DNA from: an uncultured Candidatus Peribacteria bacterium
GTDB taxonomy: Bacteria; Patescibacteriota; Gracilibacteria; BD1-5; UBA6164
Length of the DNA: 32,712 bases
Assembly: GCA_964438925.1 (NCBI GenBank)
Contig: CAYTMN010000001.1
Location: 9,725 to 42,436 of the forward strand
Reading direction: 5' to 3'
The position numbers were made by a program, and so were the translations under genes. Below, piece by piece: positions 1 through 32,712 of the stretch. The notes beneath the pieces were generated by a model. That model did no database searches. It was not told the origin of the DNA and saw nothing but the letters and a program-made list of their open reading frames with translations. Numbering within the stretch: position 1 is the first letter of the stretch; every line of letters begins with the position of its first letter.

Positions 1-833
1 AAAACGAGCTCTATATCGTGAACTTTTCCGTCAACTTCAAAGCTAAAGAGGTATGTTTCAAACGATGATTGAAGGAGTTTTCTAAAACCATTTTTATATG
101 GTTCATTGAGAAATCATGATACTTCTCCATAGTGCTCCATAGTAACGCTCCTTATGTTAAAATCAAAAAGCGTTTCAATATCACTGAGTCTATTTACGGT
201 AATATTTGAAATTTGTTCTTTTACTTTTCTATGTTCCGCATTGTATTTGATTCTCTTCTTTGAAGGAAATCCAGCATTTATATGCTGTAAATACGCTTCT
301 CCAGACTCGAAAGGGCGTACATCAAGGTCATAGAGTCCCATTTGAAAGTCAAACCCTTCAGGAGCCCAATCTTGCGTGCTCGTAAAGTATACGTACTCGA
401 GGTTTATTGGACTTTCGATTTTTGAAAGAAGAAAGTCTACTACTCCTTCATATCATTTTTTAATAAATACAGGATGTTGTGCTTTTTTGCTGAAAAATGA
501 TTCTAATTTTCCTGTATCTGTATCAAGGTTGAGAGGGATAAGCCCTACAGGAGTTTCTCAAACATATCCTACGAAAAACTGGAGAGAATGATGAAACTCG
601 TTATAAAATGTCATAAGGAAGTCCCAATTTTCAAAAAGTACATCAGGGTTTGCAAAGAGGTTCCATATAGATTTTGCCTCTTCTTTGTCAGTGATGACTT
701 TATGAGTATAGACTTGTGGAGTGTAGTGGATTGTGTGAGTAAAAGGAACTGGTTGTATGGTTATTATTGGATCTTGTGTTGGTTTTTCAAGGATCATAGT
801 TCCTTGATTTCAAGACAAAAATTGATTATTCAT
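1..833 (-). CDS. FemAB/CelD-type GNAT-fold acyltransferase-like protein (3' end lies outside the window)
   Basis: Minus-strand pieces 558..797 and 114..341 share one frame. They join through in-frame TGA (558-560, 114-116), and the frame stays open to position 1. Segments ...FVGYV[G]ETPVGLIPLN... and ...YLFSFEVDGKVHDIEL resemble CelD/BioF2-type GNAT proteins. The start is ATG 831-833 or ATG 795-797. Confidence 0.45.
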
Positions 834-1177
834 AATATAGTTATTAGATAAAAATGTGTTTCTCGGATGATGAGGGGAAATAGTTGCCTGATTTTCTTGT
901 AGTACGATGAGAGAATCTCTCAAAGTAGCTAAAGAAAAGAGGTTTGCATATATGTTTTTTAATAAAATAATGTTGCACAAAAAAAGCTACCTATAAATAC
1001 TTAGGCAACCTATGTTTTTCTTAGTACAGATATAACAACAGAGAGTGATCTCTTTCTTAAAAATGTGTCGGACGTGTCGTCTTCCATATACGTAGTTACT
1101 TATCTGTAGTTAGACATTATAGAGGTTTTTTCCTAAAATCAACTCGTTTTTTACATATTTTGTTTTTCGCTCTATAA

Positions 1178-1210
1178 AAGCAAAAATACCCGTTGCGCTC
1201 GGGTATTTTC
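1178..1210. terminator. Rho-independent hairpin, usable on both strands
   Basis: AAAATACCCG (1183-1192), loop TTGCGCT, CGGGTATTTT (1200-1209). A T-run follows on the plus strand and an A-run precedes it, which is a T-run on the minus strand. It lies 22 nt downstream of the small minus-strand ORF. Confidence 0.6.
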
Positions 1211-1230
1211 AGGGTTAGGCTTTTCTTGTC

Positions 1231-1356
1231 TTACGATAAAATGAGGTCTATTTGTGCGGCAGTAACATCTATTTCATGACACACTTCTATATCTTCACAC
1301 ATAATTTCACCAACAGCAGACGCTGAGTTGGCATCAGCCCATTTATAAAGAGTCAT
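1231..1356 (-). CDS. 41-aa acidic hypothetical small protein
   Basis: ATG 1354-1356 to TAA 1231-1233, encoding MTLYKWADANSASAVGEIMCEDIEVCHEIDVTAAQIDLILS. It has its own promoter-like element upstream and a terminator hairpin downstream. I recognise no homology. Confidence 0.3.
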   Translation of the reverse strand: MTLYKWADANSASAVGEIMCEDIEVCHEIDVTAAQIDLILS

Positions 1357-1389
1357 ATACGTCGAAGGCTAAGATATAAATACCTATAT

Positions 1390-1418
1390 ATTGTACCGTA
1401 CTTTTTTTGTAGTGTAAA
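1390..1418 (-). promoter_or_regulatory. Sigma70-like promoter for the small ORF
   Basis: On the minus strand: TTTACA (1413-1418), 17-nt spacer, TACAAT (1390-1395). It lies about 33 nt upstream of ATG 1356. Confidence 0.4.
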
Positions 1419-1509
1419 AAATTACTATTGGACAAACGCTTCTTTTTTTTCACTCTATAGATTTTTCTTTTTTCTCTTTTTGAATATTGTATGGCATATA
1501 TCTATACAT

Positions 1510-2343
1510 ATGGAAATATTTTGAATCCCTCTTTCGCATTTGCGATACAAAGACTTTTTTGAGATGATTACTGTCGAGAAACAGCATCCTTTTGTTGTAT
1601 TTACACCAAATCCTGAGATACTTCTGATCACTAAAAAGGACTCAGAGTATGCAGATATGTTGCGCAAGGCAGACTTCCTCCTTCCAGATGGAGTAGGACT
1701 CTATCTCGCATACCAAATACTTGATTCAAAAAAATCCCTTCTTTGAGATATATGTTCTTTACCTATGTATATTTATAGACTTTTGAGGCAAAAAAAAGCT
1801 CTATACGAAAAGTATGGAGAGAGAATATGTGGAAGTGATCTCACAAAAGATGTACTTCAGTTTGCAGCTAAAAATAAAAAAGAAATTACAGTAGTGGATC
1901 TGTACAATCCAAAAGATGCAGCGAAAATAGCTTCACAACAAGTTTTTGTAGAGAAAGTTCAGGCAGCATTTCCGTGACTGGTGATTCGATACTATATTTG
2001 GAAAGAAGAGCAAAAAGAAGATATTATAGCGCAGATAAAGAACACTTGAGAGCAATTTTTATTTTCAACACTTGGAATGAAAAGACAAGAGGAAAATATT
2101 GCAGAGATTATGTCCCAATGCCCAAATGTTGTTTTTGGTATTGGAGTTGGAGGATCATTTGACTACTTTACAGGACTACAAAAAAGAGCCCCAGAAAGTT
2201 TTCGTAGGCTTTGATTTGAGTGGTTGTATAGACTCATATATTGACCACAAAAGATAAAAAGAATTCAGAGGCTTTGGAATGCTATAGTTGTGTTTACCTA
2301 TGAAGTACTCAAGGAAAAAGCAAGAAAAAAATCTACTGTATAA
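1510..2343 (+). CDS. WecG/TagA/CpsF-family (GT26) glycosyltransferase
   Basis: Frame-1 pieces (1540..1746, 1765..1977 and onward) are joined only by TGA. Start ATG 1510, stop TAA 2341-2343. Family motifs present: IF[G]NPLS, FTPNPEILL, LLPDGVGL, GVGGSFDYFTGLQKRAPESFRRL[G]FEWLYRL. TGA 2212-2214 falls on the Gly of the G-x-EWLYRL motif. Confidence 0.85.
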
Positions 2344-3833: not shown

Positions 3834-5186
3834 ATGACTGGAAATGAAATAATCGGCACAACAGCGTATGGAACTCTTACAGCACAAGATATGTGAGGAG
3901 ATGAAATGACCTGAACTCTTGTGGAAAAATCTCCTTGGGAAGAAGTATCAGTTACTACAAGAGCACTCAGAACTGAAACTTTAGAACAAGTGGAGAGAGT
4001 AATCAATGTGTATTATCAGTGAGAACCTGGAGCTTATAGTCATGGTGTAGCAAAACTCATGTATAAGCAACTTAAAATCACTCAAGAAGGGCAAGAAAGA
4101 GTAGAGAAAATAGATGGAGTATTGAAGACAGTAAGATATAGGATAGGAGAGATAGAATGACTCACAAACTTTGCCGCAGTACATAAAAAAATAAAAGAAG
4201 GACATATAGGAGTACTTCCAGTTGGAAATACGATAGCGGGGCCTGTTTGAGAAAATATGAACTACTTTTACAATACTACAGGAATCAAAGTAGTAGCAGG
4301 AAGATATGAGAGAATCAGGCATATGCTTATGGGGCTTCCGGGAACCGATATATCGCAGGCGCAGAAAGTTATCTCTCATTGGCAGGCTCTTGCTCAGTGC
4401 GAAGGAACGATGCGTGAAATGTGACTCTCAACAGAAGACTATTGAGATACTGCAGGTGCAGCAAAACATATCAGTGAAACACAAGATGTCACAAAACTTG
4501 CTATAGCTTCTGCTGATGCAGCAGAGAGGTATGGACTTGAAATAAAGAGAGAAAATGTCCAAGATAATCCAAAAAATAGAACAAAATTTCTTGTTATAGC
4601 AAATGAAGAGGCTCCAGTAGAGTGCTTAAAACAACCAAATAGAACTATCGTCGCTCTTCATGTATCTGAAGGTTCAGGAAGTCTCGATAAATTTCTCAAT
4701 ATTTTGTCACTTTTTCGAGTAAACTCTACAGAAATACACAGCTCAGTGGTTACAGGAAAAAACGAAGATCTTTCATATAACATCTTTTTGGAAATAGAAG
4801 GGACCCAAGAAGATGAAGAAATACAACTTGCGCTTCTCGCAGTGAGTAACCAAAAGATACGATCGATACTTTCAAACCCAATCGTTGCTCATATAACGGC
4901 ATATCTTTGAGATGGAGATAAGTGTTTAGGACTCAAAGAGCTTTGAAAGGGAAGTATTCTTCAAGCACTTTCAGCTCTTAGTAATCCAAATATTGGGATA
5001 TTTTTTACAGGGAAGAGCGTAAGATATGTCTCAGAAAACATGCAACAACAAACTCAAGAATTACAAGAACGTATTGCTGCAATAAATGGTCATGGAAATG
5101 AACTAAAAATAGGAGAAGATATTAGTATCGTATGAACGTATTTTTACAACGAATTAAAAAAAGAAGGAGAAGAGATAAAATCTTAA
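3834..5186 (+). CDS. pheA: Prephenate dehydratase (PDT plus ACT domains) with a C-terminal extension of about 90 aa
   Basis: The frame is open 3834..5186 with only TGA interruptions. PDT motifs: VYYQ[G]EPGAYSH, GVLPVGNTIAGPV, ISHWQALAQC, [G]DTAGAAK, NRTKFLVI. ACT-like segment: SGSLDKFLNILSLFRVNSTEIHSS...YNIFLEIEG. Stop TAA 5184-5186. Confidence 0.8.
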
Positions 5187-7038: not shown

Positions 7039-9993
7039 ATGCAGCAGCGCGTAGCTCCAGAGAGTCTAAAGCTCTCTTTGTGGAACATAGAATTTAGAGG
7101 AAATAGTGTGTTTTTTTGAGGAAAGATTCTCGCAGAAGTTGAAGAGAGTGAAGTAAAACCTCTAAAAGAAATTATCAGACAAGCAGCACTTTTTCAAGAT
7201 ACTGCTTGAGTATGGACTCCTCATATTGCTGCTCAAAAAGCCAAAGACCTTTCAGACTCTATTCAAAAACTCAAAGTATCACTCGTAAGTAAAGGAGCAA
7301 AAGAGATTTTTACTCTTGTTTCAAATGAAACTTTTGCGTGAGTTTCTTTTCCAGTGATTACTGCTACAAAAGATAGTATTGCAGATATTCAAAAGACACC
7401 ATCTGAGTTTACCAAAGAGTCTCAAAAAAGTGCAACGGGCGATGATAAAGCCACTATAAAAGAACATCTAGAGTGAAAAACAAAAGAGGAGCTTATAGCA
7501 AATTTACAACAAATAATAGACTTTATCGTTGTTCCAAAGAACAATACGCAAGCAGGTTCTGTACTTACATGGAGAGCCCATCTTTTAGCTCATAAACTAG
7601 AAAAAGAAGCCTCTTCATCACAAGAAAAGTTTACTCTTGCTCTCCAAGTAGAAACTTTCAGAACATATTTTAGACTTCAGTGAAAGACAAGTCATCTTCC
7701 TCACCTACAAGATGATGACACAAGAAAAGCTCGCCTACCAGCACAAGAAGTAACTTCTGCAGCCATAGAAGAAAATCTCGTAAAACATGGAACTCTCGAT
7801 GCAAACGTTCTTGTAGATCTTGTTTCCAGATTTTTACTAGGTATAACGTTTAATCCAGAAATAACCATCAGAGAAATACAGGCAAATCCTGAGTTGAGAA
7901 AGATGTATGAAACACTTACTAGAGTTGCCCTACAGTATAGAAACCAAAAAGAAAATAAACTCAGAGATAAACGTATAGTGGAAAAAGTAGAAGAGTTTCT
8001 TGAAACGCTCGATAGATATCAATACATTTTTGATTCAAAAACTATAAACCTTACTCCAAGAGGGATTGCAAGACAAGGGTTTTTACAAAAACTTAACGAT
8101 GAAACTCCAGAAAGGAACATACGTGATGCACTTTCAAGACTTGAAGCAGATATTGGGACAAGGCATTTTGAGGGTTCACTTTTTGTGGTAAATACACTTA
8201 TACAAAAGGCTGCAGAAGTTTCAATGTCATTTGAAGGACAACAAGAAAGGGTAGATATAGCAAAAGCACAGCACTATGCAAGTGATTTTGTTGTACTTGT
8301 AGTACAAAGCATGATTGAGACTGCAAAAAAACAAAGAAGAGACGAACAAGCTTTTGTACAAAATCTTTCAAGTATCGCTACATATATAGAAACACTTCCA
8401 GAAAGTGAGAAAAAATCTCAAGCTCAAAAACTCCTTGCAGACTTTAGAAAACCATACGATGATGTGCAAGCACAGAAGCAAGCAACAAAAGCTGAAAAAG
8501 AAGCGTCTGAAAAACAAGATAAACAAGAGATTCTTACAAAAGTAGGAAAAACAGTCGACCTCCTCAGAGAAAAACAAGACTTTAGAAGTGCCTATATTAC
8601 TGAGGTATACATTACTATATATACTGCTATCCAAAAGTATTTTTCCGATGAAGACTTTGTAGCACAATTATCGTATTTTGAAAGACGACTGTGAATGGAA
8701 TATCAACATGTAGCATATGGGATGGAAGCAACTACAAACTCGTATCCTCATCGCTATGTAGCAAGACAATCACTCCAAATACAGCTCAAAAACTGACTCT
8801 CTCCTGAGATACTTTTAGAAGAAATACAGCTGCATATGATACCACAACTTTCACCATATGAGTCAGTAAAGGGATCAAATTTGTACTATAGAATACTAGA
8901 TGCTCTTGCAGAGCTACAGAAGATATATATGGCAGATAAGCAAACTATCGCCCAACTTGAAGCTCTAGAAAAACAAGTTGATGAAATGTTGAATTTCAAA
9001 TCACAATTTACTTCAAAACAAGAGTGGGAAAACCATCAAAAAGTACAGTCTTTGAAAAAAGTACTCCCTCAAGAACTTTGAGTAAACTTTTATGATGACC
9101 AAGGAGCGTATTTTAGAATGGTAGAGGATTTTATTTCACAAGCATTTGTTGATAAAGCGGGAATGCAGTCAGAAGCGTACCTGAGAGCTCTTGCACTCAT
9201 AGAACTCTGAGAAGGGGAAACAGGATATGTAGCCCACTCAGCTTCTGCTAGAAAAAGACTTGAAGCAAGGAAACAAAACTTTATAGCACAAATGCAGGGA
9301 AGAGAAACCTACAGAAAGAACCCTATTCAAGCAACTCCTTCCACAGAGCTACAGACACCAACTCGTTCTATCTTGGGAACTATAGGAGAGAAAGTAGTTT
9401 CTATTTTCTGAAGAGTAACAAGGCAATCTATAGCTCTTGAACAAACTCGTTATACACACTGGACTTTTTCAAGTATGCAAGATGTACAAGACCTAGACAC
9501 TCATATTCGTAGCGATATTGACTGGTACAAACAAAACATTCAAAGAGTGAAAGATATTATTGGAGATATTCAGGCAGCTGTGAAAAAAGAGACTGTGTTT
9601 TCTTGAGGAGCATTTGCAAATATGATAGGTATATTTTATGAGTATTTTCCTGAAAATGAAGAACTTCTCAAGCAAATGAACTGAGCATGAGCTGAACTTG
9701 TGGAGGCACTAAAAAAGGAGTTTTTTAGTATCGTGTATGAGTACAACACATCGTATAACTCTCTTGTTGATGGACCTGAAACAGATGCATATATAGCTCT
9801 TCAAAAACAAAAAATGGAAGAAAGACTCAGTTTTGCTACGAGTCTCCCTGGAAACCTTTTAGAGAGAGAAATCCAGTTGTATGGATGACTTTTGAGGGCA
9901 AAAACATTTGCTGATTATAACGCAATTTGTAAACAACTTGACCTTCCCATTGTCCAAATAGAACCAGTAGAACCTATGAAAATCGCTGCATAA
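7039..9993 (+). CDS. 984-aa hypothetical protein, predicted helical and rich in E/K/Q, with no recognisable domain
   Basis: The frame-1 pieces (7039.., 7894..8694, 8836..9081, 9700..9888) are co-linear and interrupted only by TGA. Start ATG 7039, stop TAA 9991-9993. It has its own promoter and terminator. I saw no signal peptide or TM segment. Confidence 0.7.
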
Positions 9994-10031: not shown

Positions 10032-12653
10032 TTATACTCTAAATTTTTTTCTTTGAGATGGAGTTTGTGGAGGCATAAATAGAGGATTTGCTCACGTTGG
10101 AGCATCTGGATGATCTTGGATATGTGTAGCAAGATTTTCTTCTATTTGCGCTTCATTTACCACAAAGTCTGATGCATCGAGAGTGACCTCTTCTACCACT
10201 ACTCTAGCATCCTTTACGCTAAATATAGCTTTAGTAGTTTTATATTCGATCTCGTTAATAAGATGACGAAACTTTTCAAATGCTTTTTCTTTGTACACTA
10301 CGAGAGGATTTCTTTGAGCATATCATTCAAATGCAACTTCCTCACGCAGGCGACTCATAGAGTCTATATGGTTCATCCAAAGCTCGTCAATACTTTGTAA
10401 AACTATTCTTCTTTCAAGTTCAAAAAATGCTTCTTCACTCGTTGCAGTTCCACGAATTTTATGAAGCTCTTCTATAGCTATGTGACCTATATATTTTGAG
10501 AGTTCATGAGGTGTTTTTATTGCATTTATATCATCATTTTCGATGGTATCATCAATAATTTGAATTCATACAAACTCATTTACGAGTCCAGAGAGAGCCT
10601 TTCTATCTGCATACTCTCACATTCTCGACATTTCTCCTTCAACAAATTTACGGATTTGACTCAAAACCATTTCATGAATATCTTCATCGATATTTTCACT
10701 ATTAAGTATCTTATTTCTCTTTCCGTAGATAATCTCTCTATGTTTATTGATAACATCATCATACTCAAGTACGTGTTTTCTCGTATCAAAGTGATGTCCT
10801 TCAACCTGCTTTTGAACGCTTGTTACTTTATTGGTAAGCATTTTACTTTCTGTAAGTGGCTCATCATCAGGTAAAGATGAAAACATAGGAGAGTTAAATA
10901 CTCCAAAGAGTTTATCTCCTCAAAATATTCTCATGATGTCGTCACTTGGAGATACAAGATATTGTGTCACTCCAGGATCTCACTGTCTTCCAGATCTTCC
11001 ACGTAACTGGTTATCTATACGTCTTGTCTCGTGTTTTTCAGTACCGATGATAAAGAGTCCTCAAAGTTCTCTTACCTCATCTCAGAGCTTGATATCAGTC
11101 CCTCTTCAGGCCATATTGGTAGCTATAGTAACTGCATCTTTTTGACCTGCGTTTGCAACGATTTCTGCTTCTTTTTCATGATACTTCGCATTGAGTACAT
11201 TGTGGGGGATCCCGGCTTCTCTAAGTTTTTGACTCAAGTATTCTGACTTTTCCACGCTTACCGTTCAGACAAGAACTGGTTGTCATTTTTTATGAAGGTC
11301 ATCAATGAGTTTTACAACGTATTCAAACTTACCTTTTTCGTTTTTAAAGAGTAGATCAGGTTTGTCGATACGAACGATAGGTTTGTTGGTAGGGATAACA
11401 AGCGTTTCAAGAGCATATACTTTATAAAACTCTTCTTCTTCTGTTTTTGCAGTTCAGGTCATACCTGCGAGCTTCCAGTACATACGGAAATAGTTTTGAA
11501 ACGTAATACTTGCGAGAGTCTTTGATTCTTGTTTTATCTCTACTTTTTCTTTTGCCTCAAGTGCTTGGTGAAGTCCGTCTGAGTATCTTCTTCCTGGGAG
11601 AACTCTACCAGTATGTTCATCAACGATAAGCACCTCATCATTGACGACAATATAGTCTTTATCTCTTTTATACACTGCAGTAGCCCTCAGAGCGTTTTCT
11701 ACGTGGTGGAGGTCGTTATAGTGAGTTGAGATATAGATATTTTCAATCTTGAGGAGTTCTTCTACCTTTCCCACTCACGCTTCAGTAAGAGTTGCTGCCT
11801 TGTGTTTTTCATCTATTTTATAGTGTTCGTTTTCTTTGAGAAACTTTATGAGTTCTGAAAACTTCATATATTTTGAAGTTGGCTCATTGTCAGGCATAGA
11901 GATGATGAGAGGAGTTCTCGCTTCGTCTATGAGGATAGAGTCTACTTCATCAACGATAGCAAAAAACAGTCGTGATTGACTAATATCATTGTAAGAAGTT
12001 ACCATATTGTCTCTGAGATAGTCAAATCCTAACTCATTGTTAGTTGCATATACGATGTTTTTTCTATAGGCTTCCTTTTTTGCACTTTTTTCTTGATGAT
12101 GCGTGATAACTCAAACACTCAAACCGAGAGCATTATACAGTATTCCCATCTCTTCTGCATCACGTCTTGCGAGGTAATCATTGACGGTTACTATATGTAC
12201 CGGATTTCCTGTAAGGGCATTGAGGTAAGCAGGAAGTGTTGCAACAAGAGTTTTTCCTTCTCAGGTTTTCATCTCCGATATATTTCCGTCATGTATTGCA
12301 AGACCTCCTATAAGTTGAACATCATAAGGAATCATATTCCAAGTGATTTCTTTTCCACTTTGAAGTACAAACGTCTTTCCGTTAAGGAGTTTACAAGCTT
12401 GCTTTACGAGAGCAAAAGCTTCTTCTTTTATGTCATTGAGAATCGTTCAAATCTTTTCAGAGTCAGTAGGATTTTTAAAATCAAGACCTTGAAAAAGAGC
12501 CATAAACTCTTGAGTTTTTTGCTGTACTCATTCTTGAGTAAAACCAGCAAATTCTTGTTCTTTGAGGTGTATTTTTTCAACTATTGCTTGGTAGGATTTT
12601 ATTTTTTTTACGTCTGGGTCTCCGATAAGAGCTTTTATAATCGTTTCAATCAT
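10032..12653 (-). CDS. secA: Preprotein translocase ATPase SecA
   Basis: Minus-strand pieces ending at 12005, 11774, 10886 and 10298 are all in one frame. Start ATG 12651-12653, stop TAA 10032-10034. Walker A reads EMKT[G]EGKT, with TGA at 12261-12263. KLAGMT[G]TAKTEEEEF has TGA at 11454-11456. Other motifs: [43 protein letters not shown]. Confidence 0.95.
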
Positions 12654-13369: not shown

Positions 13370-14476
13370 CTATTTCTTGATGATATTTTTTTTGTAAAAC
13401 ACGACTTCCTTTCCTCAGTTAAAAAGCTTTCTTCTTTTCCACATGTCTCTTTCTTTTGTGTCAAATTCATAACTCGTAATGATTCATCCACTCAACTCAG
13501 GATTTTTTCTGAAGAGATTTCGTATTTCTTGGTATAAAGAGTCTATATCAGAGGGGATGAGTCTATCTCCATATGGAGGATTACTCACTATAGTCCCGCT
13601 AAGAGTTGCTGCTTCATACTCAGTAAAGTCTTTTTTTGAAAATTGGATAAGACTCTCAACTCCAGCATTTTTTGCATTTTCTTGTGCAAGTTCAACACTC
13701 GCTTCATCTATGTCAGAAGCGATAAGAGTATAGCTTCAAGTATAGAGCTTTTTCTTTGCTTCTTCTACTACTTTTTCCTTGAGTCCAACAGGGAAAAAAG
13801 AAAATTTCTCGTATGCAAAATCTCTCAAAAGTCATGGTGCTCTGTTTTGAGCTATCATTGCTGCCTCTATGATGATAGTTCCACTTCCACAAAATACATC
13901 ATAAAATGGTTCTTTAAATCTCCAACCAGAAAGCAGTACGAGTCATGCTGCGAGGTTTTCTTTGAGAGGAGCTTCAACAGTACTTTTGCGATATCATCTC
14001 TTATGGAGCCCATCTCCTGAAGTATCTAGCATAATAAGTACTTCATCTTTTACGATAACTATTTCTATATCGATAACTGGTTTATTTCCATCTTCTTCTA
14101 TAAAACTTCCTTTTCCTCCGATAACATCAACGATAGCTCTTTTCGATATTTTTTGTATTGTTGGAGTACTTGTGAGAGCAGAGTGAATAGACTTAGCATT
14201 TACGATAACAGGATTTCCATCTATATATTTTTTCCAAGGAACTTTTGAAATACTCTCATAGAGTCCATCAAACGTGTCTATTTCTTTTGCACTTCCTAGG
14301 AGGATATACACTTTATTTCCAACTCTCGACCACATATTTACTTTCGCAACCGCCTCTTCATCACCATCAAAGATGATGACTCTATCGCGTCACTCAAGCA
14401 CGGTATACCCAAGCATCTCTATTTCTTTTCGAGCGATGCTTTCTAATCACAAAGAACACGAGAGAACTAACTTCAT
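13370..14476 (-). CDS. THUMP-domain class I SAM-dependent RNA methyltransferase (RlmL/RlmK-like, UPF0020)
   Basis: Start ATG 14474-14476, stop TAG 13370-13372. N-terminus MKLVLSCSL[G][14 protein letters not shown]. Catalytic region: GDGLHKR[G][36 protein letters not shown]. Confidence 0.85.
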
Positions 14477-16551: not shown

Positions 16552-19500
16552 ATGAAGGTGTTCAAGAAGATAATATACCTTGTACTTTTGCTTTTCTGTA
16601 AAGTGAGTCCGATTTTCTCAGCAGCAGAGTTATTACCGATACAAGTAAGTTTTCAGCAACCAACATATTTGCTGCAAAAGGACCAGATATTGGATACATA
16701 TGAGTGTGACTCTACAAAGCCAGAGTGCAAGGTAAATCTCGATATTACTCCCACTTTTTGAGATGTAAGTGCATCGAGTTTCAACTGCCATATAGACTTT
16801 TGATTTGAAACTCCAGAAAGTGAAAAGTGTAACCCTGGAACAGTGAGTATGCCAGTTTGAGAAACGCACGTACATATACAAGTTTTTGAAAAAAATAATC
16901 CATCAAATGTAGGGCAAAGAGAGATAGTCATAAAAAATACTCCTCAAAATTCAAATGTATGAATGGTTCTCGATGCAAGTGAGACGGTAGTTATTCCAGA
17001 TATTCTCTACACGTTGCAGACTCCTTCATATATTGAAAAAGTATCTACCTGAAGCCAAATATCGCAAACAGGAAGTATAGATACATATGTGTGTGACACG
17101 ACAAAACCTGAGTGTAGTGTAAACATTTCTTTAGAAGATACTTTTGGCTGATACATTCCTAAAAAATTCGCTTGTGAAATTGCATTTTGATTTGTGTCGT
17201 GAGAAGAAAACAACTGTAACCCAAATACGGTTACTTTTCCTGAGTGAGACTATATTGTCACATTTAAAATATATGAACTCCTTCATCCAGAAAATGCCAA
17301 GTCTACAAGTATAAAGATTATACATTCCACAGAAAAAAGAGAAATTCCAGAACCAATTATTACTGTCCAGAGTGGGCTTTCTCTTGTGTGAGAAATGTAT
17401 GAATGCAGAGCGAAAGATTGCACTGTAAACTTTTCTGCTCAAGACTCTTTTACTGGAGGATTTGTAGAACAAAACTATACGTGTAGTTGGGACTTTTGAA
17501 GCGGAAGTATACAAACGAGTACTTCTTGTAACCCTTGATACATCCACTTTTCTACAGGTGAGCAAAAGGCGACTCTTTCTATATATTCAAAAGAAGATGC
17601 AAGCACCTCTCGTCAAACTCAAGTGGTGTTTCATAATCCTTTTTTTACTTCTCAGACACAAACGGGCAGTACCTCTTATGAATTTTCTATTGAACCAACC
17701 TTTCAAACACCTAGCTCTATACAAACACAGTGACAAGATCTATGGTGCGATCAAAGCAAAGAAGAGTGCAAGATAAACATATCTCTTGAAGAAAACCTTA
17801 GTTGAGCTAAAGCTTCTGACATTATTTGTCGTGTAGATTTTTGATTTGTTGCATATGATGACTGTAACCCAACCACAGTTCTCGTACCGAGATGAGAACA
17901 TATTTTAATCCTCAGTATATCTCATAAAGATGTGCCAGATACTGTTATATCGAAAAAATATAATATCCATAATACTCCTCAACAACTGAGTATTCCACAA
18001 CCAATTATTTCTATCCAGAGTGGCATAATACAAGCATCATCATGATTGGTATGTAAAAATGAAAAATGTAGTATCAATGTTTCCGCTCTCGAGAACTTTA
18101 CGGGAAGTATTTCTCCTGAAAAAATAGGATGTGAATGGGATATGGGTGGTATACTAAGTTTTACAGGAGCATCACTTAAAAGCTGCAATCCTTGATACAT
18201 TTCGTTCCCAGAATGAGTACATACGATACGTTTAAAACTCTATGAAAAAGAGGACATATCAAACTTTTCCGAGAGTTTGCTCGTTTTTCAAGCCTCTACG
18301 AAAAAGATACAGGTGGCAACAGCGTGAGCACCACAAGAAGAAAGAAAAATACAAATACAGTCAGGACTTGTGCAAAGCAGTCAATGATATGTATGTGAAA
18401 AAGAAGAGTGTAAGGTCAATGTAAAATTTCCATCACATACATATGAAGCGTGCACGTGGAATTTTGGTACAGGGAAAGTCCAGAGAGAATCTAAAAGTTC
18501 ATGTAATCCTTGAATAGTTTCTTTTTGACCATGAGAGCACAATATTTCTCTCGTAGTTACAGACGAAAAAAGCCAACAATCATATGCTTATACACTTCAA
18601 TTTCAGAACTTATTTTCTGACATTCCAGAACTATATTCTCCTCCCATAGCACAAATAACTGTTGACGGAAAACTTTCAAAAAATAAAGTCATTCAAAAAA
18701 AGAACTTTATTTGTTACACACAAGACACTTGTAGCCTGAATCTTTCCTGAAAAGAAAGCTTTTCACTGGACAGAAAAAACCTCGAGTTTTACTGGGATTT
18801 TTGAGATGGAGAGACTTCAACAAAGGCCAATCCAAAAGCAAAAAAATTCTTACTTTGAACGTATACAGTAGTTTTGAAAGTGAGTGATGGGGTAAGTACT
18901 TCACAAGATGTTCTTACAGTACAAATTCTCAAAAAGTGAGATATTCCTCAGATACTCGAAGATGCACATATCTACTCTTCACTCAAGATAAAATCTCTTT
19001 TCCCAAATCCAGAATGAAAAGATAGTGATGAGTGGGTACAGCTCGAGAATACTTCATGGAATATATTGCACCTCAAATGACTCATCATACACTCAAGTGG
19101 TGATAAAAAATATACTATAGAAGAAAGTATCTATCTTTTACCACGTGCTACAAAAAAGTTCTACAAAGACCAGACACATTTGAGTCTTAAAAATCAAGAT
19201 GGGGAAGTATCTATTTGGTATAACCAACGTCGTGTAGACTTTCTTTTTTGGAGTTTTCCTGTACGACCGTGAAGTATTATCACCAGAGAAAGTTTAGAAA
19301 TATCTTCCCAGAAAGTACAAGTTTTACACGTCATTGATGGAGATACTCTGAGTATTGTTTTTGATGATGGTCACTCTGAGAAGCTCAGACTCATAGGCGT
19401 TGATACTCCAGAAACAAAACATCCAAAGAAAAAGGTCCAAGAGTTTGGGAAAGAAGCGTTTGAGTTTACTCGTACATCTCTTGAGTGACAAACGGTATTT

Positions 19501-20472
19501 CTCCAGATAGAAAAACAAAACTATAGGGACAAATATGGGAGACTTTTAGGATATATCCGTCTAGATGGACAAGAAAAGACATTTAATCAAATACTTATAG
19601 AAAAAGGATACGCTCGAGCATATCTCTATTTTCCTTTTGTATACTCAGAAGTATTTAAAAAAGCGGAAAAAGAAGCAAAGGAAGCAAAAGTATGACTTTG
19701 GGCTGATAAAGAACTTATCAAAGAAACTCTTCCAGAACCAGAGACACTTCCGCCTTTACTACATGACTTTTCTTTTTCTCAAGTCTTCGAAACTCTCGAT
19801 GATATTTCTTACTATTTTCAAGTAGAGCAGTATGTACCAAAAAATCTATCTCGGAGATCTACTATACTTGCTCTTTTCTGAGAAGATATAGAGCATAAAA
19901 AAGTGTCTAAACTGTGACAAAAAACAAAACAAGTAGCTTTATCCAAAAAAGAAAAAATTCCTTTTTCTCTCAAACTTTCTCTTTTAAAGTCATGAGTAAA
20001 AGTCTCTGGGAAAACAAAACCTTTGAGTCTGGTAAAAGTTCATATATTTCGAGAAGAAGTATCTCTACAAAGCGATAGTATAGGAAAGTTTTCCTATCTC
20101 TATACTTGACCTCTTGTAGAGTGACAACAGCTATTGAAAGTCCAGATTTTCACAGAAAATAGGGAAATTCTCAAGGAAAAGGAAAAAATATTTACCATAA
20201 CTCCTGAGTACAAAACCGCTGTTCTCCTCAAAAAACAAAAGGCAGCTGCAAAACTCAAAAACACAAAGAAAAAATCTACAAAAAAGAAAGGTGCAAAGAA
20301 AGTAAAATCTATACCTTTTCTAACAACAGTCTCAAAAAATTTTCAAGAAACTCCACAAAAATCTCTCAACTATGATATGATCTTTCTATATATATTTATT
20401 ATCGTGTGATGTGGAGGTGGATGATGATATATACTTCAATGAGTCCTAGAAAAAAGAAAACAAAAAATATAA
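16552..20472 (+). CDS. 1306-aa secreted, C-terminally membrane-anchored multidomain nuclease (seven PKD-like repeats, lamin-tail domain, SNase/thermonuclease domain)
   Basis: The frame is open from ATG 16552 to TAA 20470-20472, with only TGA interruptions. Signal peptide: MKVFKKIIYLVLLLFCKVSPIFSA. LTD at about 18982-19290: FPNPE[G]KDSDEWVQLENTS...LK[G]. SNase at about 19315-19710: VIDGDTL, RLIGVDTPET, KYGRLLGYI, AKV[G]LWAD. A Lys-rich tract follows (about 20218-20310), then a terminal hydrophobic segment MIFLYIFIIV[G]CGGG[G][G]YIL. Confidence 0.85.
16627..18960 (+). repeat. Seven tandem protein-coding repeats of about 105-130 codons (Cys-containing PKD-like modules) inside the nuclease gene
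   Basis: The recurrent pattern is C-x(5-6)-C-x-[VI]-N...C-x-[WI]-DFG...CNP[G]...G-x-H/Y. CNP codons fall at 16828, 17215, 17527, 17863, 18184 and 18502, all in the same frame. The seventh unit is a canonical PKD domain (FYWDF[G]DGETS...GTYTVVLKVSDG). Confidence 0.7.
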
Positions 20473-25822: not shown

Positions 25823-25837
25823 ATTAGTACTTGATAA

Positions 25838-26026: not shown

Positions 26027-27154
26027 ATGCACTACTTTTTAACTTCAGAGTCAGTAACGAGCGGTCACCCAGATAAAGTCTGTGACCAGATAAGTGACGC
26101 AGTACTTGACGCATGTTTTGCGGTTGACCCAAACTCTCGTGTAGCTTGTGAGTGTCTTGTAACCACTGGAACGGTTATCGTTTCAGGAGAAATAACTACA
26201 AAAGCATGGGTAAACTTTCAAGATGTAGCAAGAAAAGTCATACGTGAAATCGGGTACAACGAACCTGAAGCATGTTTTAGTGCTGATGATGTATGAGTAC
26301 AAATCCTTATCAACTCACAATCTCCAGATATCGCTCAAGGAGTAGATACAGGAGGAGCAGGGGATCAAGGACTTATGTACGGATACGCAACCAACGAAAC
26401 AGACAACTATCTCCCAACACCTATCAGTCTTGCACACAAACTTTCTCGCAGACTTGAAGAAGTTCGTAGAAACGGAACTCTTCCATTTTTGCTTCCAGAT
26501 GGAAAGACACAAGTTACAGTAGAGTATGCTGAGGGGAAACCTCTCAGAGTAGATACAGTAGTTGTTTCAAACCAACATAGAGCAAGCGCAACAAACGAAG
26601 AAATTCACCAAGGTATCATAGAGCACGTTATCAAACCAATTGTTGGAAATCTCACAGATGAAAAAACAGTGTTTCATATCAACCCTACAGGACGTTTTGT
26701 AACTGGAGGACCAAAGGGAGACTGTGGTCTTACTGGAAGAAAGATTATCGTAGATACGTATGGTGGTATTGGTCGTCACGGAGGAGGTGCGTTCTCAGGA
26801 AAAGACCCATCAAAAGTAGACAGAAGTGGAGCATATATCGCTCGTTACCTTGCTAAAAACATCGTAGCATCAGGAGTATGTGATAGATGTGAAATCCAAA
26901 TCAGTTACGCTATCGGAGTTGCTGAACCAGTATCTATCTTTGTAGATATGTTTGGAACTGAAAAAGTAGCAAGAGAAAAAGTGATCGAAGCTGTAAAAAC
27001 AAGTTTTAATCTCACTCCAAAGGGAATCATAGAAAAACTCAATCTTCGTAATCCTATCTACCAAAAAACCGCTACATACGGACACTTTGGAAGAGACGAT
27101 GTGAGTTGGGAAGCACTTGATAGTGTAGATGTTTTCAAAAAACTCCTTTCGTAA
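26027..27154 (+). CDS. metK: S-adenosylmethionine synthetase
   Basis: [28 protein letters not shown]..., then SADDV[G][36 protein letters not shown]..., then [21 protein letters not shown]...[19 protein letters not shown]. The two standard-code pieces are joined by a single TGA at 26294-26296. Stop TAA 27152-27154. Confidence 0.97.
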
Positions 27155-27183: not shown

Positions 27184-28170
27184 TGCCAATATTTGTGTGA
27201 TTTTTCTGCGAAAATCATTTGAGTTTGGGGTTGTAGGATTGGGCACTGCTTTTCTGGAAACAGGAAAACCAGCTATTTCCATAGAAGCCCCATGTTCTTT
27301 TGGATGACCTTCCTCAGTAACTCTACGATAGTTAAACTTTATTCTCAAAACTGTTTTTCCTCCCTGAGTAAAACTAGCCAAAGAGTAGGCCATCAGTTCT
27401 TTTGTAAACTGTAGTCAAAGAGAGTTTACAGCCATCCCAAAGTCGTAATCTATACTTTTATTAAAGCCAGTAGTATAGCTTTCCAGCAAGGAAAACAAAA
27501 GCATCATATACTTTGTATTTCTTCCTCAAGTGAGGGAGTTATTATCAGGCAAAATGATATCAAGCGCGTGATGTGTATTATTGTACACAACAGATGGTAT
27601 GGTTTGAGCGAGACTACTGTGTCTTTTGAGATAGTCTTCAAATCCATCAAGAAGATACTTATTTTCATCGTTAATACTGAGCTTTGAGAGAAACTCATCT
27701 ACTCTTCCAACCGTAACTCTCATATGGTTTTCGACGGTTGGCTCTGTACGAAATAGAGAGATATGTATGTGGGGACGAAAAACAGACTGTGCTTTCCCAT
27801 TTCATGGTTGTGTTGCTGCATTTATACCGACCACGAGCTTGTACTCTCCAGTAGCAAGTTGAGATTCATAGGTCTTTTCCAGCCCACTCACGACTTTTTT
27901 CAAGAGTGCATCTAGGCTTTTTCTCTCTTGAGGAGTACAGTCAACGAGCGTTCTCACTCACATATTTTCTCCTCCATAGACGATCATACAATCCATATCT
28001 GAGTATGGAGCGGCTTTTTCCGCTAGTACCCAGTCACCAGTATCCAATATAATCGGTGGATTATCGGCTCTGAGATTTTGTCTCATTCACGTAGCACTTC
28101 GTAGGCTCTCGAGATTTCCAACATCTCGAGTATAGCCGTGTGCCTCTAACTCTGTGTGTACTATCCTCAT
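27181..28170 (-). CDS. HIT/GalT-superfamily-like protein (degenerate His-triad HIHIS), 329 aa
   Basis: Start ATG 28168-28170, stop TAA 27181-27183; the pieces are joined by TGA. The segment ...LVVGINAATQP[G]NGKAQSVFRPHIHISLFR resembles the HIT core (G-x-N-x-G...Q-x-V-x-H-x-H-x-H-x-x-P-R), with Ser in place of the third His. The overall length and two-lobed layout recall GalT/Ap4A-phosphorylase-type enzymes. Confidence 0.5.
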
Positions 28171-28288
28171 ATATGTATAAAAAATTTTGGAGATTATAGA
28201 CCTATATTGACGAAATACAAGTTACATTTAAAATATCTTGCAAATCACCAAAAATTCATACAATACAATCATATTTTTTTATATAAAA

Positions 28289-28588
28289 ATGTGTATGAAT
28301 AAAAGAGATCAAGCACTCCAAGAGTGTAGAAATGATTTAAGTGGATATTGTAGGGGAAATGCTCACTTTCTAGCAGCAGGAGGAAATGTATATATGGAGT
28401 CAGATTTTGACGTGACTATTGCAGTGGCTCAAAGAGTAGATGCTATTAGAAAAAAACTTTGAACAGTTACAGGACAAGAGTTAGAGCAAATACTCAAAAT
28501 TCAAAACATTCGTTTTATCCCTACACCACAGATTCAAGACTTTTGCTCAATGATACAAACACAACTTTTAGAAAAAATCGCAGCATAA
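28289..28588 (+). CDS. Hypothetical protein, 99 aa
   Basis: ATG 28289; ATG 28295 or TTG 28238 are alternative starts. There is one in-frame TGA. Stop TAA 28586-28588. No recognisable motif. Confidence 0.5.
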
Positions 28589-28594
28589 AACTCT

Positions 28595-29164
28595 ATGGAC
28601 CATATCTGGAAAAGAGAAGTTGATGGAGGACAAAGTGATGTGTTTAAAGATGGAAACACCTGTGTAAAAGTGTACTCAGGGATACAGCGAGACGATATAG
28701 TGCTCTATCATACCATACAGTCACAGCTTTGCACACGAGTCTGTACTATTCTCACAAAAGTACAGCAGTATCAAGGACAAGAGGTACGAGAAGTAGAAGT
28801 ACAGTTTCTCTTACTTGATGAAAACTCAGTAGAGTCTCAAAAATACTCTCGTACAGGTATAAGTCAGGTAACCACAAGAGTTCCTTTTATAGAGGGGCAG
28901 AGTTTTGCTGAAGCATTTTCAAAAGACCCTATGTTTTGGGAGTTTGTACAAAAACGAGTCATCAGGTTTTTACGTCAACAGGTACCATCTCTGAGCATAG
29001 GAGCCAATCAATTGGCAAGACATAACATAAAGGTAGTATGATTTGCACAAGGAACACTCAAACTTCTCGTTACCGATATCGCTCAAAACATCAGAACATT
29101 TATAGATGCAAACAAAGATAAAGTAGAACAACTTACCTATTTGAGAGAGAGTAGAGAAAAATAA
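28595..29164 (+). CDS. Hypothetical protein, 189 aa, with weak protein-kinase-like features
   Basis: The ATG is 6 nt after the previous stop. GGQSDVFKDGNTCVKVY resembles a Gly-loop followed by a VxK strand. ARHNIKVV[G]...LLVTDIA resembles catalytic-loop and DFG-type elements. Stop TAA 29162-29164. Confidence 0.55.
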
Positions 29165-29226
29165 GGAGCAAACTTGTATTTTCAAAGAAAGTATGGTCTA
29201 ATAGATACATACTTTTTTATCTATAT

Positions 29227-29919
29227 ATGGGGAAAAAACCACTTGAACTTCGTGGAACTATAGGACCGAGCAATGACTGGGCGCCTGTGATACAAAAAGG
29301 AGACACACTCCCACTCACTCCCACAGAAAAACTTTCAAATACTCTAGAGATACAGGAACTAGAGCTTTTAACAGACTCACTCGTACTCTTCATACAAAAA
29401 CCAAACTTTAAAAAATCGGTCGACAAACAAACACTCAAGCTGGTACAAGCAAGCATCGTAGATACAAAACTCTTTATACGCTCAGCGCGCCTCCAAAAAG
29501 AAACACCTCAAAGTATTAGAGAGGTAAAGTGAGAGGTAGCAAAAACCCTGTCCCTCGCACAAAAAGCGATGATGGCATACGATACGCAAATACTTCTCAA
29601 AAGTATGTCTATAAAAGAAAATGCCCTTTGGCTATCTCCTCATAAACAAAAAGTGTTAGAGATGGAACAACCACTTGCGTATACCTATCTTAAAAACCTG
29701 CTACAGGTAAAAACGCATATAGATGCTTGGCTCAAAAATGGAATCATAGATGAGTTCACATGGTGGAATCTCCTCAAGTTTGCCAATCCTCCGAGAATCC
29801 TCCAGATCATTTATACCATAGAACAAAACAAAACCTCACAAGAACATGAGAGGCAGATGATACAGGAAGCAGTAAAAGAGTTTATGAAAGTAGTACTCAA
29901 AGATTCACAAGAGGCATAA
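29227..29919 (+). CDS. Hypothetical protein, 230 aa
   Basis: Pieces 29227..29532 and 29569..29919 share one frame and are joined through TGA 29530-29532. Stop TAA 29917-29919. No recognisable motif. Confidence 0.6.
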
Positions 29920-29931
29920 GCCTCTTTTTTA
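29909..29931. terminator. Short bidirectional terminator
   Basis: AGAGGC (29910-29915), ATAA loop (which contains the stop codon), GCCTCT (29920-29925), then T6. Confidence 0.6.
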
Positions 29932-30168
29932 GTACTGACTGTAGACTTTTTCTATGGTGATGTTTTTTGCTTGTATATGAAAGAGTATCTTGTATTCGCC
30001 AGCTCTAAAACAGTAAGACTGGGTAAAACGAGAAAGCATCTTGAGGTTTGGGAGACGTGGAAAACTGGAAAGAAGAGATATCTTTTCTATGATATATGCT
30101 ACATCAGTGTCAGGTACTTCTGAAAATACACTTACTGAAGCCTCACTAAAGAGTATATTAAAAGCCAT
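29929..30168 (-). CDS. RelE/ParE-superfamily type II toxin
   Basis: 79-aa ORF with no internal TGA. The C-terminal segment ...SYCFRAGEYKILFHIQAKNITIEKVYSQY matches the RelE/ParE pattern (y-R-x-R-v-G-d-Y-R-i-i-Y-x-i...I-x-I-x-x-V). Its start overlaps the upstream small ORF by 11 nt. Confidence 0.7.
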   Translation of the reverse strand: MAFNILFSEASVSVFSEVPDTDVAYIIEKISLLSSFPRLPNLKMLSRFTQSYCFRAGEYKILFHIQAKNITIEKVYSQY

Positions 30169-30349
30169 ATTGTTTTTTTACTTGAGCTAAAGTGAGTCCT
30201 TTTACTTTTTTGGCACTTTTTTCGAGTATCTTGAGGTCCACAACGTCTTCAAAGTCCTTTACTTCTACGTCAGGTTGGTCTTTGAGGTTTGTGAGAAATT
30301 TATCTCTTGCTATCTGGTTTTTAAAGTTGAGAATGATTTGTAGAGACAT
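30158..30349 (-). CDS. Putative cognate antitoxin, 63 aa
   Basis: It sits immediately upstream of the toxin and overlaps it, which is the typical type II TA layout. I do not recognise the sequence family. Confidence 0.5.
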   Translation of the reverse strand: MSLQIILNFKNQIARDKFLTNLKDQPDVEVKDFEDVVDLKILEKSAKKVKGLTLAQVKKQYGF

Positions 30350-30544
30350 AGTTGTATGATAAGCAAAATAGGACTCAATAGTACGAGTTTTTGCGAAAAT
30401 AGCAAATAAAAGCGAAAAACCCTGACCTGCTCTCGCTTTATAAAAACTGAAAATAAGAAAAGTTATAAAAATAGTAAAAGTACTATAAGTTATACAAAGT
30501 ATAAATAGTTGGAAAAGTAATACTTTTAATACTGAAAAGAAATG

Positions 30545-31126
30545 TTACTGAATGTCTCTGATAGCTTTATTTCAAGCGATAGTTGTTTGTATTTTTTCCT
30601 GTATTTTGTGTATTTTTTCTTTGCTAGCTTCGTCAAGTTCGATGTGTATATCTTCAAACATTTTTTTGAGAGCTGTTTTTTCGGTATCACTCAGATAGTC
30701 GTGAGAAAATATCTCTACAAAACTTTCGTTTTGCATCATTTGTTGTTGTACGTATCTTACGATATCCTCTACTATTTCTTTAAAAATTATAGCTATATCT
30801 ACCTCTATTTCATCGCTTTTTTCACTTACTAGGTAGTTGAGACTTTCACGATCATCTATGTCTATGATACTTTCAAGATACTGAAATATGAGCCTATACA
30901 CTACAGGCAAATGTTTTTGTGTTCTGTAGTTTTGTATAAGAGTTGCTATTTCTTGTGTCTCATCAACTATATCTTTTCCTACGAGAAATAGAGAGAGTTC
31001 TTTTTTGTCTTCAGAACTGATATTTTGGCTACTTATAGTATCTCTGAGACTGAGTATAGATGTTTGAATGTTTTCTCTGCGTAAGACATAGTCAAACAAG
31101 AAATTTTCCACAATAGAGTCAGACAT
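30545..31126 (-). CDS. Hypothetical acidic helical protein, 193 aa
   Basis: The standard-code ORF 30572..31126 extends through TGA 30572-30574 to TAA 30545-30547. Confidence 0.6.
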
Positions 31127-31187
31127 AAGAAAAAGTTAGGGAGTATAAGTAAGAGTATAACACCGTTTAAGAAAAATCAAAGAGTAA

Positions 31188-31538
31188 CTACACTCCTCAC
31201 TGAACAGACAAGATGAGCAGTATATCGACCATCTTTTTGTGAAAGTCTTCGAGAAGCGTAAGTACCTCTTGTTTACTGCGAGAGTTTTGAACCTGTTGTA
31301 TCAACCCTTGGAGGACTTCTTTGGTCTCTCATGGTCAAGAAAAGTCAAAAACTACCGACGCAGAGGAAAGTCTTTCCTCAAACTTTCACAGATAGGTTTC
31401 CATACTTTTTGCTATCTTTTTTGCGAGGGAAGCATGTAGAGTATTTCCTTCAACAGATGTTATCATCTGTCTGAGTGTTTCAAACCCTTCAGCGATCTTA
31501 ACATCTGAAGTATCAAAAGGTGTAGGAGTATCGGTCAT
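31188..31538 (-). CDS. Hypothetical protein, 116 aa
   Basis: ATG 31536-31538 to TAG 31188-31190, open only when four TGAs are read as Gly. The start lies 12 nt after the stop of the upstream gene, which suggests one operon. Confidence 0.45.
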
Positions 31539-31550
31539 AGAGTATAGGGG

Positions 31551-32117
31551 TTAGAGTATCTTTCCGTCTTCAAGCTGAAATATAACAGTACTGCTCTCAA
31601 TAACAGGGAGACGCAATATGTGTAAGGCGCTTCTTTTTTCTCCTTTCAGTTCCACAAAGAGGTGGTAGATATTTCCTTCTCCCTCTGTGTTTACAAATCT
31701 TTCTAACTGAGGGGATGAGCGTTGTTCCAGAAACTTTTTTTTGAGTGTATCTAGTGGTTCAAAAGTAAAAGGTACTTCAGCCATACTTCCTGCGTGTAGT
31801 AGTGGTGCAGAGAGTGTTTCTTTACAGAGAACAAGTCATCTGTCGTGCGGAGCAGCGGTCATACTTTTTTTCCCAAAACTCACAACGACATCACCTACGT
31901 TTGTGTCTTTTTTTACCATTATTTGTACCTTTCCAGTTATAGGATCGTGTATATCAAAAGGCTTTTTTGTAGGAACGACAGAGACTTGGTAGTTTCTTTT
32001 TGAGGTAACACCTACATACAAAACCCACATCGCTAAAAAGTAGAAACAACCGATGATTCAAAAAGTGATGAGAAATATACCTTTTTCAAAAAGTTCAGCA
32101 AAATCAGAAAGACTCAT
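31551..32117 (-). CDS. Hypothetical membrane-anchored protein, 188 aa
   Basis: Start ATG 32115-32117. The N-terminal hydrophobic helix is GIFLITF[G]IIGCFYFLAMWVLYV. Pieces 31836..32030 and 31551..31784 share one frame and are joined by TGA. Stop TAA 31551-31553. Confidence 0.55.
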
Positions 32118-32145
32118 AAAAAAATTTTAAAATATAAGATAAAAC

Positions 32146-32712
32146 CTACAGTTTTTCTCCAGAGAAAAACCTCTGAACCACATACTCTACAAATGGTCAT
32201 GGTTGGCGTATGATAGTGTTATGATCAGCGTCTGGTACTACTGCAAACCCGTCAAGATACTTTTCAGGTGCACCTCAAAACTTTGCCTTGAGTTGTTCTA
32301 GAGGAAATGCTGCATCATTTTCTGCATGTGTAAGCGACACTTTTACTCAAAGACTTCTCACTTTTTGTATGTAGGGAAGAAGTTGTACTTTTGGCATGAG
32401 TTTCAGTGAGCTCCAGAGCATATTTGCGACATTTCCAGTCCATCCATCCCAGTCTTTTGCAACCCTGTTTTTTGTTGCGTCATAGGACGTAGGTGTTCCA
32501 CGAAGGATGTCTTTTACTTTTCCTGAAACTTGTTCTTTGATAGTTTTCACCACCAGTCAAAGTACTGTTTTTTCTTCTGCGAGACCAACGGTACTGTTGA
32601 GAACAATGTTTTTAAATCTGTGAGGCAAAAGTTGTGCTGCTATAAGTGCATGGATCGCTCACTCTGAGTGAGCAAAAACATCGGTTTCTTGTATACCTTG
32701 ATGGTCTAGCGT
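32146..32712 (-). CDS. Alpha/beta-fold hydrolase (5' end lies outside the window)
   Basis: The frame is open from the window edge to TAG 32146-32148. The nucleophile elbow FAHSE[G]AI has TGA 32659-32661 on its final Gly. The C-terminal segment ...VVPDADHNTIIRQP is consistent with the catalytic His region. Confidence 0.7.

Follow-up and report, generated by a model that had tools for sequence, protein, structure and literature searches.

UGA as a fifth glycine codon in a genomic segment assigned to the Gracilibacteria

The translation of UGA, a standard stop codon, as glycine is an established feature of the Gracilibacteria and Absconditabacteria (PMC4032931, PMC6851277, PMC8629427). Knowledge of this recoding dates from 2012-2013, and proteomic validation followed in 2014; NCBI table 25 (Candidate Division SR1 and Gracilibacteria) and Prodigal both implement it. 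In this study, a stretch of DNA of 32,712 bp with a GC content of 35.8% (hereafter the window, meaning the whole stretch) was analyzed. It is almost certainly part of the chromosome of an uncultivated Gracilibacteria bacterium (BD1-5/GN02, 'Candidatus Altimarinota' at NCBI) that uses genetic code 25, with UGA as a fifth codon for glycine and termination restricted to UAA and UAG. As in the code 25 systems described in these papers, all genes of the window contain in-frame TGA codons on glycine columns, TAA and TAG are the sole stops, the GC content is low, SecA is placed with the Gracilibacteria, and a glycine-type tRNA(UCA) is found in a relative; no difference in the code itself was detectable. 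An initial annotation of the window had proposed code 25 throughout and had remarked that the recoding was already known for these groups, and both statements hold.

Other known systems share part of this behavior. Code 4 is used by the Mycoplasmatales, the Entomoplasmatales, and several insect endosymbionts, and loss of the release factor RF2 is the presumed route to it. Like the window, code 4 organisms such as Mycoplasma, Spiroplasma, and insect endosymbionts are AT-rich, read UGA as a sense codon, and stop at UAA and UAG; unlike in those organisms, TGA in the window matches Gly and GGN, never Trp and TGG. Selenocysteine recoding also makes UGA a sense codon, by way of a tRNA with the anticodon UCA, and tRNA-Sec has an 8-bp acceptor stem and a long variable arm. 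The Absconditabacteria (SR1) reassign CGA and CGG to Trp in addition to reading UGA as Gly, and CGG as Trp has been predicted in some Gracilibacteria (PMC8629427).

Open frames and the residue at TGA sites

With all three standard stops (TAA, TAG, TGA), no open frame on either strand of the window is longer than 336 aa, and a single one reaches 300 aa. When TAA and TAG are the sole stops, 16 frames reach at least 300 aa, with a maximum of 1335 aa. Taking TAA or TAG, rather than TGA, out of the stop set brought no gain (1-2 frames of at least 300 aa, maximum 336). The interruption is thus specific to TGA, because only its removal from the stop set restores long frames. A greedy, non-overlapping gene model with TAA and TAG as stops yields 28 genes, the longest of 1306 aa, with short intergenic gaps and a coding density of 91.6%; no other stop set restores these genes. 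The 28 genes contain 202 in-frame TGA codons, 1-42 in each, and no in-frame TAA or TAG or frameshift interrupts them. The 27 genes with a complete 3' end stop at TAA (20) or TAG (7). This agrees with the initial annotation, which had described TGA as the sole interrupting triplet and TAA or TAG as the end of every complete coding sequence; the ten sites that it cited are all TGA, in frame on the coding strand. It had also declared the supplied open-reading-frame (ORF) track invalid, and every gene is indeed fragmented under table 11.

The fragmentation of every housekeeping gene under table 11 is also what a standard-code genome with disrupted genes would give, whether through pseudogenes, assembly or sequencing errors, programmed readthrough, or selenocysteine. 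However, TGA is the only interrupting codon, in frame at each of 202 sites in 28 genes, and 153 of the 154 TGA codons that can be compared are kept in a second strain under purifying selection (see below). The probability of such an explanation is therefore considered vanishingly small.

The identity of the encoded residue was assessed by aligning eight proteins, with X at each TGA, to PDB sequences from standard-code organisms, which are free of annotation circularity. Glycine stands opposite 33 of the 59 aligned TGA sites, compared with a background of ~7.5% (P ~4e-22), and neither Trp nor Cys stands opposite any of them. The individual alignments are as follows:

SecA against Bacillus subtilis SecA: Gly opposite 11 of 14 TGA sites
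GpsA against 1txg: 6 of 14
HI0933-like flavoprotein against 4cnj: 7 of 11
RlmL-like methyltransferase against 3k0b: 4 of 8 (against 3ldu, 5 of 8)
RuvA against Escherichia coli RuvA: 1 of 1
TagA/WecG against 7mpk: 3 of 5
Prephenate dehydratase against 2qmx: 1 of 5
MetK against E. coli MetK: 0 of 1 (Ala)

Many of the matches lie in recognizable motifs (in the following, the residue at the TGA site is bracketed). In SecA, they include the Walker A motif MKT[G]EGKT (12261-12263), AGMT[G]TA (11454-11456), NMA[G]RGTD, and GRQ[G]DPG. Both TGA codons of the GpsA motif F[G]T[G]AFG (5268-5270, 5274-5276) are opposite Gly in 1txg, and both dinucleotide-motif glycines of the flavoprotein, I[G]A[G]AAG (25155-25163), are Gly in 4cnj and 2gqf; the site in LFTHF[G]LSGP of the same protein also matches Gly. 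The TGA of RuvA, [G]GVAY (12833-12835), corresponds to Gly in the E. coli protein (VG[G]VGY), and that of WecG, L[G]FEWLYRL (2212-2214), to Gly in 7mpk TagA (KL[G]QEWKYRL). The methyltransferase adds Gly matches at HKR[G]YR and AP[G], and prephenate dehydratase adds one at YQ[G]EPGAYS; the remaining aligned TGA codons of the dehydratase fall at variable positions. Both Rossmann TGA codons of gpsA precede the first ATG (5292). The start of gpsA is most likely the GTG at 5250, which gives MNILLF[G]T[G]AFG and thus places the Rossmann motif inside the gene; the public call on the sister-strain contig is 303 aa, equal to the ATG-start model, and appears to miss the GTG start too.

The SecA, GpsA, flavoprotein, RuvA, and WecG sites had been proposed as glycines in the initial annotation, which placed TGA on invariant glycines in general. 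That generalization stands for many motif sites and fails for the ~44% of aligned TGA codons that occupy variable or non-Gly positions. For example, the TGA of metK (26294-26296) had been listed as an invariant glycine, which it is not, as E. coli MetK has Ala there. For the PKD motif WDF[G]DG (18802-18804) of a surface protein (g13), the site does lie within a Pfam PKD match (residues 738-791), and glycine is the consensus at this position of the WxFGDG motif. The TGA of the proposed hydrolase motif HSE[G] (32659-32661) is in frame, but the hydrolase assignment is a sub-threshold match obtained only with Gly inserted.

SecA also provides an internal control. In the alignment with the B. subtilis protein, Gly stands opposite 79% of TGA, 74% of GGN, and 2% of other codons. 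This indicates that TGA behaves as a glycine codon.

Exchange of TGA and GGN among relatives

The window has a near-identical public counterpart, an ENA contig (ERZ27275536 k141_84945; 64,807 bp) that is 98.7% identical and aligns without gaps except for one replaced segment; among GTDB species representatives, there is no close one, and the closest SecA is 73% identical. The contig, hereafter the sister strain, differs by 282 single-nucleotide polymorphisms (SNPs). Third positions account for 181 of the 271 SNPs in compared codons, and of the 253 codon differences, 172 leave the amino acid unchanged under code 25; the SNPs are natural variation under purifying selection. The single TGA codon that is not kept, and the only TGA-involving difference among the 282 SNPs, is in g07 (7207-7209), where TGA is changed to GGA.

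SecA homologs were obtained from a collection of 5.8 billion proteins, and the best 120 were taken. Named entries among them, together with 80 loci from GTDB species representatives, are all of Gracilibacteria/Altimarinota type; the relatives are metagenome-assembled genomes, some labelled Peribacteria or Patescibacteria group, and the closed genomes CP042461.1 and CP017714.1. The taxonomic placement of the window is by SecA similarity alone. The best match (P0001), a database copy from the sister strain, has two differences from the SecA of the window apart from the TGA sites, and it carries W at 17 of 17 TGA sites, the Walker A site included. Taken at face value, this would favor genetic code 4, in which TGA encodes tryptophan. 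It merely reflects the table chosen by the gene caller: W at all 17 sites means that genes in the collection were called with code 4, and the Trp content above 1.5% in 96 of the best 120 entries is consistent with such an artefact.

Protein comparison with Gracilibacteria entries is circular, as the code was chosen by the annotators. The circularity was avoided by using code-4 translations, in which G can come only from GGN, and then by turning to DNA. In 95 code-4-translated relatives aligned with MAFFT, columns in which the window has TGA hold W in 40% and G in 36%, and columns with GGN hold G in 45% and W in 33%; the three columns in which the window has TGG hold W in 100% and G never. The secA genes of the 80 loci gave the same picture at the codon level. 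Columns with TGA in the window have GGN in 39%, TGA in 35%, and TGG in 0% of cases, and GGN columns have GGN in 44% and TGA in 31%; TGG columns have TGG in 90% and TGA in 0%. Per secA gene, the number of TGA codons varies from 0 to 45 and that of GGN from 5 to 63, with a sum of 42-68. Of the 1915 TGA codons in these genes, 890 are at columns conserved to at least 80%; the conserved residue is Gly at 878, another residue at 12, and Trp at none. TGA and GGN thus replace each other in evolution, and TGA and TGG do not. Exchange of TGA with TGG was never seen, and the TGG columns remain TGG or W in 90-100%. Code 4 shares the sense reading of TGA, the TAA and TAG stops, and the low GC content, but it has no Trp match among the 59 PDB-aligned sites or the 890 TGA codons at conserved columns.

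Some of the relatives have few in-frame TGA codons in secA: L071 has none, L070 two, and L074 three (SecA 53-54% identical to that of the window), and L002 has four (SecA 69% identical, GC content 0.40). In L070, the GC content of secA is 0.54, and an RF1 gene is located near secA. Some nominal Gracilibacteria retain UGA as a stop (PMC8629427), and loci of this kind could mark that boundary.

Codon usage and the decoding of UGA

Under code 25, glycine makes up 6.6% of residues in the window, compared with 4.6% if TGA is ignored, and TGA accounts for 31% of the glycine codons. Under code 4, tryptophan would make up 2.7%, compared with 0.7% from TGG alone. A glycine content of 6.6% is normal for bacteria, whereas a tryptophan content of 2.7% is about twice the usual value. 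Together with the change of TGA to GGA as the sole difference between strains, this makes code 4 extremely unlikely. Four independent lines of evidence show that this organism reads UGA as a sense codon with the meaning of glycine: the PDB alignments, the secA codons of 80 relatives, the SNPs between strains, and the composition.

Several observations weigh against this conclusion or limit it. Two nominal Gracilibacteria species retain UGA as a stop (PMC8629427); membership in the clade alone is therefore no proof, and it is the codon evidence of the window itself that carries the claim. Of the aligned TGA sites, 26 of 59 are opposite residues other than Gly, and some of these are fairly conserved: Pro in 'SGP' of GpsA, Tyr in the RlmL-like protein, Tyr/Phe in prephenate dehydratase (PDT), and Lys/Met in 'VTxGGV' of the HI0933-like protein. 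The non-Gly rate at TGA is similar to that at the GGN codons of the same gene, as seen in SecA. Ambiguous decoding of UGA at a low level would also be compatible with the sequence data. Finally, neither the window nor the sister-strain locus contains a tRNA gene.

A candidate for the decoding tRNA is found in a relative. Among the 80 loci, one contains a tRNA(UCA) (L041 5302-5380, minus strand, in CAYFMG010000008.1; SecA 67% identical). Its length is 76 nt, to which an encoded CCA is added; the acceptor stem has 7 bp (GCGGGGG/CCCCCGC), the discriminator base is U73, the variable loop is short, the anticodon loop reads CUUCAAC, and the architecture is the canonical 7/5. It carries G1:C72, C2:G71, G3:C70, and U73, which Shulgina and Eddy gave as criteria for a Gly-accepting tRNA(UCA) in these phyla (PMC8629427). 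ARAGORN by default labels this tRNA 'SeC', which would suit selenocysteine as the cause of the in-frame TGA codons. However, the 7-bp stem, short variable arm, and glycine identity elements differ from the architecture of tRNA-Sec, and the gene matches the Rfam tRNA family RF00005 (45.9 bits), not tRNA-Sec. Moreover, selenocysteine recoding is unlike the situation here, where the reading is genome-wide and not site-specific, the sites match Gly and in no case among the 59 Cys or selenocysteine, and no SECIS element was found in the window by Rfam.

For the release factors, a scan for the GGQ motif in 1.39 Mb around secA of the relatives detected a single release-factor gene, of RF1 type (L070, PET tripeptide), and none of RF2 type, a sample too sparse to show absence. 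Sieber et al. did not detect prfB in the closed Gracilibacteria genome CP042461.1 (locus L044 here) or in any BD1-5 genome available in 2019, whereas prfA was present (PMC6851277). In proteomics of a BD1-5 enrichment, Hanke et al. found 97 unique peptides with Gly, 3 with Trp, and 0 with a stop (PMC4032931). Judging from the relative and this literature, UGA would be decoded by a dedicated tRNA-Gly(UCA) with the glycyl-tRNA synthetase identity elements G1:C72, C2:G71, G3:C70, and U73. Termination at UGA may have been abolished through loss of RF2 (prfB), with RF1 serving UAA and UAG.

The arginine codons are relevant to whether code 25 is a complete description. CGG occurs 4 times in 9966 codons (19852, 23123, 25452, 25647) and CGA 27 times; arginine is mostly encoded by AGA (227). 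An extended code of the Absconditabacteria type, with UGA as Gly and CGA and/or CGG moved from Arg to Trp, would fit the scarcity of CGG (4 per 10,000 codons), which equals the rarity reported in clades with reassigned CGG (PMC8629427). However, SecA has a CGA at residue 228, opposite a conserved Arg of the B. subtilis protein, and at conserved columns of the 80 secA genes, CGA falls on Arg 130 times, on Lys 19 times, and on Trp never. CGG there falls on Arg 10 times, on Lys 4 times, and on Trp never, and CGT and AGA behave alike. In the window, Arg suits the CGG of the GNAT motif RxxGxG[R]; the three comparable CGG codons are identical between the two strains, an uninformative result. Unlike in the Absconditabacteria, CGA thus acts as Arg and CGG shows no Trp signal in SecA of this lineage, and the SecA relatives are Gracilibacteria. 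The extended code is thus unsupported in the window and very unlikely, although the four CGG codons of the window are too few to settle CGG.

With code 25 as the preferred reading, the share of TGA among glycine codons is uneven between genes. It is 1 of 36 in metK (p = 7e-5) and 1 of 16 in ruvA, and 42 of 80 (53%) in g13 (p = 5e-5). Recent horizontal transfer was considered as a cause of the scarcity in metK and is unsupported, as the GC content at third codon positions is 0.26 in metK and matches the rest of the window. UGA may be selected against in some genes. It could also be proposed, although we regard it as unlikely, that the lineage shows a fine structure at the codon level that reflects ongoing evolution of the code, with gene-dependent use of TGA and near-extinction of CGG. 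If so, the uneven use could mean that UGA is decoded more slowly or less accurately than GGN and is disfavored in some genes, and the near-extinction of CGG would be the state expected just before or after its capture by another tRNA, as reported for the Absconditabacteria and some Gracilibacteria.

Gene content and strain variation

Genes were annotated by Pfam searches with TGA translated as X, which presupposes no amino acid. The annotated features are as follows (Pfam unless stated otherwise; strand given where recorded):

1276..2343, plus strand: g02, wecG/tagA-family glycosyltransferase, 7 TGA codons in the long ORF; the true start is probably near 1510
3834..5186, plus strand: g04, prephenate dehydratase (pheA-type PDT), 10 in-frame TGA codons
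5250..6203, plus strand: g05, gpsA, NAD-dependent glycerol-3-phosphate dehydrogenase, 14 in-frame TGA codons
6206-6856: g06, NUDIX hydrolase
7207..7209, plus strand: TGA codon of g07 that is GGA in the sister strain (strain comparison)
10032..12653, minus strand: g08, secA, 873 aa, SecA domains, 17 in-frame TGA codons
12767..13366, plus strand: g09, ruvA, 1 in-frame TGA codon (12833-12835)
13370..14476, minus strand: g10, THUMP/RlmL-like methyltransferase (rRNA methyltransferase), 8 in-frame TGA codons
14558-15586: g11, polysaccharide pyruvyl transferase
15613-16236: g12, pilin-like protein
16552..20472, plus strand: g13, surface protein of 1306 aa with PKD, lamin-tail (LTD), and SNase domains, 42 in-frame TGA codons
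20504-23452, minus strand: g14, multi-pass membrane protein of 982 aa with a VIT domain, 17 in-frame TGA codons
24084..25196, minus strand: g17, HI0933-like flavoprotein, 11 in-frame TGA codons
25368-25787: g18, GNAT acetyltransferase
25837-25950, plus strand: SAM-I riboswitch directly upstream of metK (Rfam RF00162; 46.0 bits, E = 1.3e-7, gathering score 44.4), the sole Rfam match in the window
26027..27154, plus strand: g19, metK, 1 in-frame TGA codon (26294-26296)
32146..32712, minus strand: g28, partial alpha/beta-hydrolase-like gene with its 5' end beyond the window, 5 TGA codons (no Pfam match with TGA as X)

In g28, a match to Abhydrolase_1 appears only when Gly is inserted, and it stays below threshold (23.6 bits against a cutoff of 25.8). 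The match spans the nucleophile-elbow region, with the TGA at 32659-32661 in a putative elbow AHSE[G]; such a motif is plausible but weakly supported.

The absence of Pfam matches in g20-g27 (27181-32117) and the presence of one strain-variable segment of 3.2 kb could suggest a recoded phage or mobile element in place of a cellular chromosome. However, the window contains secA, ruvA, metK with its SAM riboswitch, gpsA, a pheA-type PDT, and an rRNA methyltransferase, and relatives of its secA are found in the closed Gracilibacteria chromosomes CP042461.1, CP017714.1, and CP060226.1 (Candidatus Peribacteria). A mobile element is thus hardly conceivable as the source. The variable segment (window 20362-23540) covers g14 and the last 111 bp of g13, and is replaced by 108 bp (L001 2185-2292) in the sister strain. 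The strains are polymorphic here for an indel or replacement, at the point where the genes of two large surface or membrane proteins converge.

Other features of the chromosomal fragment concern individual genes. The protein encoded by g13 has an N-terminal signal-like segment followed by several Cys-containing repeats of ~130 aa (…YxCD…KxECxVN…CNP…); after these come the PKD, lamin-tail, and staphylococcal-nuclease domains and a C-terminal hydrophobic anchor. The protein resembles a cell-surface nuclease, as would suit an episymbiont that scavenges nucleotides. At 23572-24082 (plus strand), two neighboring small ORFs rich in Cys, g15 (95 aa) and g16 (73 aa), have no Pfam match. They share the motifs …NC[GA]DC… and …SW/RW..ES.A…, and the gene calls of the sister strain include both; their products may be paralogous small proteins that bind metal or are secreted. 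Gene g24 (29977-30324) has an odd composition, with 6 TGA in 115 codons and no homology. It is probably spurious, and the ~625 bp between g23 and g25 (29920-30544), in which Rfam gave no match, may be non-coding.

In sum, this study adds one more confirmed instance of an established recoding and opens no new question. For the window itself, the table-11 ORF track is wrong, and domain calls, structure prediction, and homology searches need table 25. Public code-4 translations of this lineage carry Trp at ~2% of residues, including the catalytic glycines of the SecA Walker A motif and of the Rossmann GxGxxG motif. Beyond the single locus, the secA comparison is an annotation-independent demonstration that TGA and GGN are interchanged across 80 genomes.

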